Assembly: GCA_963717505.1 (NCBI GenBank)
Contig: OY970342.1
Span: forward strand, 352,001-416,000
DNA: 64,000 nucleotides
Reading direction: 5' to 3'
Source of the DNA: Candidatus Eiseniibacteriota bacterium
GTDB taxonomy: Bacteria; Eisenbacteria; RBG-16-71-46
The notes under the pieces were generated by a model, which was given only the letters and a program-made list of their open reading frames with translations, did no database searches and was not told the DNA's origin. Both the position numbers and the translations under genes were made by a program. This document shows positions 3,489 to 34,298 of this stretch, in pieces; the stretch's first letter is position 1; every line of letters begins with the position of its first letter.

Positions 3489-5139
<1,651 letters not shown>

Positions 5140-5168
<29 letters not shown>

Positions 5169-7133: not shown

Positions 7134-7203
7134 GCGAATGCACTGTGGTGACTTTTCCCGCCGCTGACAACCACCAGTAGAACCAGGAGCAATCTTTTCC
7201 GTC

Positions 7204-7677
7204 ATGCGCCGCCGAGTCCGCAGGATTTCGCAGAGTCTCTCGTGGATGCTCGTGCTGGCGGCCGTCGTTCCCGACGTCCGTTGGTGCGAAGCCGCCTGGG
7301 CCGATCTCCCGGTCGAATGCCTGTTGGCGAGCGAGAGCTCTGCGGCCTGCGCGGCGGCGCCGAGCGAATCCCCACCCGATGACGGCGAAACCGAGTCGAG
7401 CTGCCCGCTCGACGAGCCGATCGGTTGCGGCGGCAGCTGTCCAATCGCTCCGTTCGCCGATCGAGCCTGGTGCCCCTCGGATGCGCTGGGCGCCGAAGCT
7501 TTGCCCGGCCAGGCGCCGACCATGCCCACGCTCGATCTCGCGAGTGGCGTTCTTCCCGATGAAACGGCGCACGAGACTCCAGCGCCGGCGCGAGCACCGG
7601 ATCCAGACGGCATCCCACCGCCGCTGGACCGGCAGCCGCGCGCCCGTCCCCCGGTTCGCGCTCCTCCTCAGGTCTGA
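7204..7677 (+). CDS. Cys-rich DUF2946/CruR-like leader protein with C-terminal RAPP arrest motif
   Basis: Basic+hydrophobic N-terminus, 7 Cys, Pro-rich linker, ends ...RARPPVRAPPQV*. Confidence 0.7.
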   Translation: MRRRVRRISQSLSWMLVLAAVVPDVRWCEAAWADLPVECLLASESSAACAAAPSESPPDDGETESSCPLDEPIGCGGSCPIAPFADRAWCPSDALGAEALPGQAPTMPTLDLASGVLPDETAHETPAPARAPDPDGIPPPLDRQPRARPPVRAPPQV

Positions 7678-7749
7678 AGCAGGCGCGTCGCTTGTGACCC
7701 GCGAGGCATACCGTCTCGTCGGGCGAGTGCGTCACTTCAACCGTAGGAG
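7664..7749 (+). promoter_or_regulatory. Translational attenuator hairpin linking RAPP codons to the downstream SD
   Basis: Nested pairings CTCCT(7664-68)/AGGAG(7745-49), GGT/ACC, TGAAG(7675-79)/CTTCA(7735-39), TCGCTTG/CGGGCGA, CGAGG/TCTCG. Confidence 0.65.
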
Positions 7750-7756
7750 CTTTCCC

Positions 7757-7903
7757 ATGAAGCTGATCCTGACCTACCTCGGCCTGGTCACGGCGCTCGC
7801 GTTCGCGGCCGCCGCGACCTCGGGCAGCGCGACTGCCGGAAACACGTCGGCGGAGTCGTGTTCCGTCGCGTGCAGGCCGTGCCCGCTCCCGTGTGCGCCG
7901 TAA
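7757..7903 (+). CDS. 48-aa secreted Cys-rich microprotein (C-x3-C-x2-C-x3-C)
   Basis: SD AGGAG 7 nt upstream of ATG; MKLILTYLGLVTALAFAAAATSGSATA signal peptide then GNTSAESCSVACRPCPLPCAP; GC3-rich codons; followed by a terminator. Confidence 0.7.
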   Translation: MKLILTYLGLVTALAFAAAATSGSATAGNTSAESCSVACRPCPLPCAP

Positions 7904-7946
7904 CGGCGGGCGAGGCAAATCTGTAGTCAGTCGCTGAGCAACAGAT

Positions 7947-7983
7947 CGGCGCGGGGGCAGCTCGCCTCCGCGCCGTTTGGTTT
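7947..7983 (+). terminator. Intrinsic terminator after the microprotein
   Basis: cggcgcgggggc-agctc-gcctccgcgccg hairpin followed by tttggttt. Confidence 0.6.
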
Positions 7984-34263: not shown

Positions 34264-34298
34264 GAAACGGCGCGGGCGGTGCGATTCCGCCCGCGCCG
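34264..34298 (-). terminator. Hairpin/terminator after rplQ
   Basis: Perfect 12-bp stem cggcgcgggcgg/ccgcccgcgccg followed by a short TTT on the minus strand. Confidence 0.55.

Follow-up and report, generated by a model that had tools for sequence, protein, structure and literature searches.

A putative RAPP/RGPP arrest-peptide leader upstream of a secreted cysteine-rich microprotein gene in Eisenbacteria

The window analysed here is a 64-kb stretch of contig OY970342.1 from the Candidatus Eiseniibacteriota assembly GCA_963717505.1, and the system in question is a two-gene unit on its forward strand. The first gene is an open reading frame (ORF) of 157 amino acids (aa) that ends in RAPP-QV-stop, and the second is an ORF of 48 aa that encodes a cysteine-rich microprotein. 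According to the reading favoured here, which is considered rather probable, the 157-aa ORF is an arrest-peptide leader of the RAPP/RGPP type that gates translation of the microprotein, with the Shine-Dalgarno (SD) sequence of the microprotein gene being unmasked by the stall. A similar interpretation had been offered by a first-pass annotation of the window, and the conserved leader, which is predicted to be exported, the R(A/G)PP motif, the microprotein, the fixed distance between motif and start codon and the enrichment of anti-SD sequence are in line with it. The 157-aa ORF with an export-like N-terminus, seven Cys and a terminal RAPP-QV, as well as the 48-aa downstream peptide that is not a transporter and is followed by a terminator, were present as that annotation had described them (Table 1), and the synteny of leader and microprotein was kept in 23/23 complete loci.

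A conserved leader family ending in R(A/G)PP

The leader was found to belong to a family. Seven metagenome proteins, close and distant, were homologous to the leader in the first homologue search, and of 1.84 billion cluster representatives, 34 were matched by the leader profile at E <= 0.001. About 25 of these 34 matches were full-length (150-185 aa), and the remaining ones were long repetitive proteins that were aligned over the Cys-rich middle only. The 25-sequence alignment covered identities of 25-77% to the protein of the window, and its only invariant columns were C39, C90 (the Cys of the RAWC motif), P149, R152, P154 and P155. The motif P..R(A/G)PP occurred as RAPP in 21 sequences and as RGPP in 4, and the tails past it were unconserved. 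Judged from this alignment, the C-terminal P..R(A/G)PP is the most conserved element of the leader family.

The 26 loci examined came from 23 genomes and 2 metagenome contigs in addition to the window. A leader match was present in 26/26 loci, with three of the leaders cut by a contig end, and R[AG]PP was located 1-19 residues before the stop codon in all 23 complete leaders (15 RAPP and 8 RGPP). The leader of the window carries its cysteines at positions 28, 39, 49, 67, 75, 79 and 90; in alignments A1 and A2, C39 was invariant and C28 was conserved at a level of at least 90%. The C-terminal third is rich in Pro and Ala, and the C-terminus reads ...PPVRAPPQV-stop or, in a longer form, ...RARPPVRAPPQV-stop. 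For the N-termini of 23/23 leaders, a hydropathy/charge scan alone gave an 11-aa hydropathy peak no lower than 2.03 (median 2.39) and a positively charged n-region, with a net charge of +3. The AlphaFold2 (AF2) model of the leader contained a helix at residues 7-20 and was without a folded domain; the predicted local distance difference test value was 59, with low confidence except for the N-terminal helix.

The GC content at third codon positions was 0.74 for the leader, which is weak versus the 0.80-0.92 of the neighbouring genes, so composition alone is no proof of a gene and the proof is given by the homologues. In the comparison with the closest locus (L009), the codon differences at the first, second and third positions were 35/33/65 and thus biased to the third position, and the last 18 leader codons held 7 synonymous and 4 non-synonymous changes. 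The synonymous excess in these last codons points to selection on the peptide. On the evidence of such comparisons, the leader and the microprotein ORFs are both real conserved genes.

The distribution of the leader was narrow. A hidden Markov model search found it in 24 of the 206 genomes of the phylum, with one copy each, and to our knowledge this phylum has no cultured members. All leader-bearing genomes belonged to one taxonomic family, in which 23 of 88 genomes were positive when the genome of the window was left aside. A single-sequence search of 61 related genomes had returned nothing beyond the copy in the window itself, which is explained by low sensitivity, as the later profile search gave 23 more. 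A scan of the genome contigs with leader alignment A1 gave no match, none of the leaders scanned matched Pfam or NCBIfam, and only unnamed clusters were found in the ESM Atlas. A candidate leader at L011:3183-3287, where RWCEAAW and PVECL lie in a 35-residue non-gene frame, was rejected; the pattern match was due to chance, the segment being an intergenic region plus the start of a reverse gene.

Two conserved spacings

In the 23 loci, the start codon of the downstream gene lay 84.8 +/- 6.7 nucleotides (nt) past the end of the motif (range 73-99 nt) and 66.5 +/- 17.4 nt past the leader stop codon (range 17-90 nt). Beyond the motif, the leaders continued for 1 to 19 codons, and the length of this tail was inversely correlated with the gap between stop and start (r = -0.93). 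The tail and the gap thus compensate each other, which indicates that the ruler starts at the stall site and not at the stop codon.

The second spacing lies within the leader. In 45 sequences, close relatives among them, the Cys of RAWC(P/L) preceded the Arg of the motif by 58-64 residues (median 62), and the distance from the N-terminal WC to the same Arg was variable in these sequences (104-186 residues). The ribosomal tunnel holds approximately 30-40 residues, and SecYEG spans approximately 20 more. With these dimensions, a spacing of 62 residues would bring the RAWC Cys to about the point where the translocon opens into the periplasm while the ribosome is stalled on RAPP. In CruR, a fixed distance of 45 residues between CXXC and RAPP was reported to be functionally important (PMC9426467).

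The cysteine-rich microprotein and its terminator

The microprotein of the window begins with a predicted Sec-type signal peptide (MKLILTYLGLVTALAFAAAA...), which is followed by a C-x3-C-x2-C-x3-C tail. It is a single-copy gene with no paralogue in the genome of the window. A same-strand ORF of 43-117 aa that is led by an SD, is signal-peptide-like and contains 4-8 Cys was found downstream of the leader in 23/23 loci, one of these ORFs being cut by a contig end. Two classes were distinguished by length, a short one of 43-75 aa that includes the microprotein of the window and a long one of 101-117 aa with the nearly invariant motif ACPVSDPSxCPxSC. Exactly six Cys were present in 31 of 44 microproteins (L001-L032 and P0040-P0060), and in these 44 sequences Pro made up 7% of the residues and came directly after 41% of the Cys. 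Motifs of the form Cys-Pro-hydrophobic are similar to heme-regulatory motifs. The idea that the Cys region of the leader is a Cys-Pro mimic of the microprotein was discarded, as Cys-Pro made up 16% of the leader Cys, equal to the Pro frequency of the leaders.

Annotation of the microproteins was scarce. A profile search of a 5.8-billion-protein collection gave 21 proteins only, and the relatives were named at most "hypothetical protein". No microprotein, including the peptide of the window, reached the cut-off of a Pfam model, and no NCBIfam model reached its cut-off for the five microprotein relatives scanned. The AF2 model of the microprotein was of low confidence apart from the N-terminal helix.

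The two-gene unit is closed in the window by a terminator-like hairpin. According to a strict rule, 11 of 22 loci had a GC-rich hairpin past the microprotein gene, and in most of the others one was visible. A near-identical terminator stem (GGCGCGGG...CCCGCGCC) was observed at 7948-7974 and at 34269-34297, so that the stem pattern had 2 sites in the 64-kb window versus 0.17 expected. This stem may be a lineage-typical form, and it was present after the microprotein gene in most loci.

RNA structure and Shine-Dalgarno pairing

The first-pass annotation had placed a hairpin at 7664-7749. The pairing of CTCCT with AGGAG at its base was recovered in the minimum free energy (MFE) fold, and the coordinates were shifted to 7660-7750 (approximately 91 nt). 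Fold stability was evaluated against dinucleotide shuffles. The z-score was -1.83 for 7640-7775 (7/200 shuffles folded as well), -1.75 for 7660-7775 (9/200 shuffles) and -3.66 for 7660-7759, the exact motif-to-start segment (0/200 shuffles). The stability of the window hairpin thus depends on the chosen boundaries, being marginal with generous flanks and clear for the exact segment. For the segment from the Ala/Gly codon of the motif to the start codon, the mean z-score of the 23 loci was -2.5, with z < -2 in 15/23 and z < -1 in 20/23.

The footprint of a ribosome extends approximately 15 nt to the 3' side of the P site. The test segment was the 21 nt from the Ala/Gly codon, which lie inside the footprint of a ribosome stalled on the motif. 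The pairing energy of this segment with the SD region was -9.4 kcal/mol, and that of tiled windows from the same leaders was -6.3 kcal/mol (Wilcoxon p = 7e-5, which, like all p-values here, overstates significance, as the loci are relatives). The complementarity of the 21-nt segment ranked in the top 10% in 10/23 loci and in the top 25% in 17/23. Moreover, one of the tetramers CUCC, CCUC or UCCU was found within the 21 nt in 15/23 loci versus 72/345 control windows. The T-ending codons that had been noticed in the motif of the window are indeed unusual, and CCT was enriched in the motif across the 23 loci, with 15/46 of the motif Pro codons versus 53/654 of the Pro codons elsewhere in the same frames (Fisher p = 7e-6, overstated for the same reason). 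Across the loci, the pairing of CTCCT with AGGAG was clear in approximately 13-17 of the 23 loci and absent in approximately 5.

Proposed mechanism and its alternatives

In the proposed mechanism, the N-terminal signal or anchor segment would target the leader to the Sec translocon. When the ribosome reaches Arg-Ala-Pro-Pro, bond formation to the second Pro would be slow, and the ribosome would pause with the Ala-Pro codons in the E and P sites. For CruR and other RAPP peptides, a pause was shown in which the two Pro codons occupy the P and A sites, and RAPP and RGPP were reported as the most robust arrest cores (PMC12992588); the same placement of the Pro codons is proposed for the present leader. 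The Ala-Pro codons or the next 10-12 nt would form the 5' arm of a hairpin of approximately 85 nt, the 3' arm of which would cover the SD. The stall would keep the 5' arm inside the ribosome, so that the ribosome-binding site of the microprotein gene would be more open and the microprotein would be made. When the arrest is released, the leader would end three codons on, the hairpin would re-form and the microprotein would be switched off. The duration of the arrest would be set by the exported Cys-rich part of the nascent chain, with the RAWC Cys, 62 +/- 3 residues away, as the key residue. The candidate signals would be a thiophilic ligand (a metal or possibly heme), disulfide formation or translocation itself.

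Several points weigh against this reading, in addition to the fact that the loci are relatives and not independent. Arrest, export and regulation of the leader are predictions, and RAPP alone was reported to be insufficient, with the upstream context being of importance (PMC12992588). The anti-SD tetramer was absent in 8/23 loci, and in 5/23 loci (L010, L013, L020, L021 and L032) complementarity was no better than in the controls. Part of the anti-SD character also comes free, since Pro codons are C-rich by nature. In the partition-function folds, masking of the footprint increased the mean unpaired probability of the SD only from 0.25 to 0.36, and the partner of the SD was inside the footprint (mass >= 0.6) in 13/23 loci and elsewhere in 10/23. 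The alignment of the 23 intergenic segments by MAFFT and RNAalifold gave no consensus structure, and so no evidence of covariation. A neighbour scan with Pfam, which covered 71 flanking ORFs of 22 loci in flanks of approximately 1.5 kb, found no conserved metal or redox neighbour. According to the folding models, unmasking of the SD by a stalled ribosome is only partly supported. The RNA-library contigs that overlap the unit came from soil and sediment and were short and of low depth; two identical 151-nt records lay over 7824-7974, and pieces from a relative covered 7194-7366, 7757-7979 and 7603-7688. These contigs could be DNA carry-over, and they attest presence in the libraries and not transcription, strand or ends.

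The stall could also act on transcription, as in the Rho model published for CruR (PMC9426467). The stalled ribosome would then block Rho at a C-rich rut-like site, and release would lead to termination. C exceeded G in the last 162 nt of the leaders in 22/23 loci (C 0.38-0.51, G 0.27-0.40) and in most intergenic regions as well, and the modest effect of SD unmasking in the simulations would be in agreement with such an output. However, Pro and Ala codons account for most of the C-richness of the leaders, and the intergenic segment is strongly structured. Strong RNA structure is unfavourable for rut sites. Moreover, the ruler is narrow (73-99 nt) and has its endpoint at the SD and start codon, which is easier to reconcile with an RNA helix than with loading of Rho, and the cruR-bfrG spacer is 162 nt (PMC9973294). 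The ruler ending at the SD and the structured spacer together make SD control a better fit than a Rho output, which is considered unlikely.

The constant presence of the two genes side by side, the conserved N-terminal WC...EC motif and the 6-12 Cys of the leader would suit a mature protein, i.e., a finished exported or anchored partner of the microprotein in a complex or chaperone pair, in which R(A/G)PP has a structural or sorting role and causes no arrest. Such a partner would, however, leave the tail-independent distance from motif to start without explanation, and the unconserved tails past the motif and the predicted disorder of the leader (AF2) also speak against it. Furthermore, RAPP and RGPP were reported to be avoided in proteomes except in leaders (PMC12992588), and this explanation is rated as quite unlikely.

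It is very improbable that the microprotein is the precursor of a ribosomally synthesized and post-translationally modified peptide, SCIFF-like or bufferin-like, with the upstream ORF serving maturation or export: bufferin precursors likewise have a signal peptide plus multiple Cys, and two short microproteins weakly matched TIGR04117 (the Cys-Xaa-Xaa-Xaa repeat target of radical-SAM enzymes) at sub-threshold E-values of 0.02 and 0.07 against a cut-off of 50 bits, but no radical-SAM protein, MNIO/DUF692 protein or other maturase was present among the 71 flanking ORFs in flanks of approximately 1.5 kb, and the neighbours change from locus to locus.

If the arrest-peptide reading is adopted, the unit may, with a probability well below even, be a self-contained periplasmic homeostat, in which the 62-residue ruler would set the sensor Cys at the outer mouth of the translocon upon stalling and a thiol-reactive signal would tune the production of a microprotein that buffers the same condition. 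The sensed condition may be a thiophilic metal, heme via the Cys-Pro motifs or the disulfide-forming capacity. The tight translational control that is proposed suggests a role of the microproteins in envelope metal or redox homeostasis.

Features of the unit and its upstream region

The coordinates of the features are listed in Table 1. When 21 loci were stacked on the leader ATG, GACA[CA] was observed near -37 and CCGAnAnTC at -14 to -6, with column majorities in 13-15 of the 21 loci; the spacing of these motifs was off the 17-nt rule of sigma-70 in several loci. No SD was detected near the leader ATG in the window (7144-7203) or in the same region of 20 other loci, and the mRNA may have little or no 5' untranslated region. 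These upstream sequences suggest a leaderless or near-leaderless leader mRNA and a promoter that is shared across the loci.

Table 1. Positions of the features of the two-gene unit in the window
Feature	Position	Strand	Description
Promoter-like motifs	TGACAA 7165-7170; GCAATCT 7189-7195	+	Upstream of leader
Leader ORF	7204-7677	+	157 aa, 7 Cys, signal-like N-terminus, C-terminal RAPP-QV-stop
N-terminal signal/anchor segment (predicted)	7222-7269	+	Residues 7-22; preceded by RRRVRR (basic N-terminus MRRRVRR, hydrophobic stretch at residues 10-22 or so)
RWCEAAWADLPVECLL motif (C28, C39)	7279-7326	+	Directly after hydrophobic segment; alignments A1, A2
RAWCP motif	7462-7476	+	Cys90, 62 residues ahead of Arg152; proposed sensor position
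Arrest module RARPPVRAPP (putative)	7639-7668	+	Residues 146-155
RAPP codons	CGC 7657-59, GCT 7660-62, CCT 7663-65, CCT 7666-68	+	Sequence
Hairpin	7660-7750	+	About 91 nt; base GCUCCU (7660-7665) : AGGAGC (7745-7750), MFE fold
Leader stop codon	7675-7677	+	Third codon past RAPP
Shine-Dalgarno AGGAG	7745-7749	+	7 nt ahead of microprotein ATG
Microprotein ORF	7757-7903	+	48 aa, MKLILTYLGLVTALAFAAAATSGSATAGNTSAESCSVACRPCPLPCAP
Intrinsic-terminator-like hairpin	7947-7975 (T-rich tail to 7985)	+	Hairpin, then TTTGGTTTG

Genomic neighbourhood

The unit of the window is flanked by genes on the opposite strand, a HAD-type hydrolase upstream (read from the translation) and an M20 peptidase downstream, and the leader and microprotein genes thus form a unit of their own. 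The M20 peptidase was assigned by homology to the M20-positive locus L009, and its best matches (72-79% identity) were in Candidatus Eisenbacteria metagenome-assembled genomes. Synteny with M20 as a general feature was rejected, as it was seen in the window and L009 only and leaders were found at 0/80 loci around M20 homologues. The neighbours varied by locus and included ABC-F, FBPase, M20, GNAT, two-component systems and a porin; this difference between loci indicates that the two-gene unit is autonomous. No metal transporter or oxidase was found among the flanking genes in the scan of 22 loci with flanks of approximately 1.5 kb. Thiol-redox genes (AhpC/TSA or Redoxin, Thioredoxin and a DCC1-like oxidoreductase) were observed in 2/22 loci, at L016:3-752 (+), L030:498-1151 (-) and L030:2849-3448 (-), which is too few for a conserved context.

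An ABC-F (EttA-like) gene was located within approximately 2 kb of the module in three cases, at 3489-5168 (+) in the window, L012:2-1018 (+) and L015:5-1186 (-). ABC-F proteins are able to release arrested ribosomes. The presence of ABC-F near the module is probably plain synteny.

In a crude scan of the same genome, a second candidate RAPP ORF was found outside the window, at 3671385-3671738 (-), corresponding to L117:2489-2800 (-). It comprises 104 aa from Met, with a transmembrane-like segment and Cys/His motifs, ends in RAPPIS-stop and had no match to DUF2946. A TonB-dependent receptor of 740 aa with Plug, beta-barrel and CarboxypepD_reg domains lies 111 nt downstream of it (L117:155-2374 (-)). 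This arrangement corresponds to the published CruR-type context and suggests that more than one RAPP leader is in use in the organism.

Comparison with known systems

In small secretory proteins, RAPP and RGPP are concentrated towards the C-terminus (Fujiwara et al. 2025, PMC12992588), and leaders with these motifs were reported upstream of TonB receptors, YcnI, PCu(A)C, PepSY, DsbA/thioredoxin and sigma-factor genes (PMC12992588). The leader of the window and its relatives share two traits of this class. The motif was near the C-terminus of a protein of less than 300 aa in 23/23 loci, and the leader was directly upstream of the target gene on the same strand in 23/23 loci. ApdA, ApdP, ApcA and the Streptomyces lividans set are likewise small secretory or membrane proteins with a C-terminal RAPP/RGPP that lie directly upstream of the regulated gene (PMC12992588); they differ in their targets, which are sec/yidC, metal, DsbA/thioredoxin and sigma-factor genes and, among the cases compared, no microprotein. 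SecM, MifM and VemP also have an exported leader, a C-terminal arrest and an SD-sequestering structure that is opened by the stall (PMC9973294, PMC12992588), but their targets are SecA, YidC2 and SecDF and the release occurs via the activity of the same machinery. In the present loci, the downstream gene encoded no Sec or YidC component; it encoded a Cys-rich peptide without a Pfam or NCBIfam family.

The same RNA logic applies to CutF of Rhodobacter capsulatus (cutFOG), for which melting of an SD-shielding stem-loop by a stalled exported leader was described (CutF/cutO; PMC9973294; bioRxiv 10.1101/2025.02.05.636593). CutF is, as is the leader proposed here, small and co-translationally exported, and it carries a Cys motif and, at its C-terminus, a Pro-rich motif for stalling. 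The SD is shielded by a stem-loop in the region between leader and target, and this stem-loop is proposed to be melted by the stall. CutF acts in cis and is poorly detectable (PMC9973294). CutF differs in being a DUF2946 protein with CxxxC, an EF-P-dependent PPP-type motif and a multicopper oxidase as target, whereas the present system has a RAPP/RGPP core, a single RAWC Cys 62 residues upstream and a Cys-rich target of 43-117 aa.

CruR of Bordetella pertussis (DUF2946) shares with the leader a RAPP motif at the C-terminus, only a few residues ahead of the stop codon (PMC9426467, PMC12992588). It also keeps the spacing between RAPP and a Cys motif conserved, is predicted to be exported and disordered and heads a small operon, and its arrest was seen in vitro (PMC12992588). 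The differences are the CXXC at 45 residues from RAPP, Rho-dependent termination over a 162-nt spacer, the signal-peptide-independent action and the TonB-dependent transporter as target. In CutF the stall lasts longer once the ligand is bound, whereas in CruR it is relieved. DUF2946 (PF11162) was matched by 0/25 leaders at E <= 1, and a six-frame search of the whole genome gave no DUF2946 match over the cut-off and none at the leader locus. In place of the CXXC or CxxxC of DUF2946 proteins, a single Cys in RAWC(P/L) was found 58-64 residues upstream, and in place of a metal-homeostasis operon, a microprotein gene and then a terminator. Six RAWC-type motifs had no match in the covered portion of the RAPP upstream ORF list of PMC12992588, and a literature search on Cys-rich RAPP/RGPP arrest peptides in Eisenbacteria returned no report of such a system.

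The general kind, i.e., regulation by RAPP/RGPP leaders, was already published in 2025, so the arrangement is not as unrecognised as the first-pass annotation had held (PMC12992588, PMC9973294), and the leader family and the microprotein target are what stands as new. RAPP/RGPP leaders have recently been proposed to control genes of many kinds, but a defined logic is available for few of them, and the leader family described here is a compact and constrained example, with two rulers (62 residues and approximately 85 nt), an unfolded leader and a single tiny output gene. Having two rulers, no folded domain and one output, it would be suited to probing how a nascent chain signals from outside the membrane to the peptidyl-transferase centre. 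An unannotated family of secreted six-Cys microproteins is also flagged by it. Annotation-based surveys of arrest peptides group leaders according to how the gene downstream is annotated, and targets that are unannotated or "hypothetical" may therefore be overlooked. If the homeostat is true, it would be the first arrest-peptide circuit with a microprotein as its sole output and a leader unrelated to DUF2946. Compared with the known systems, the new elements are the leader family, the ruler of 62 residues from a single Cys and the secreted six-Cys microprotein target that is closed by a terminator.

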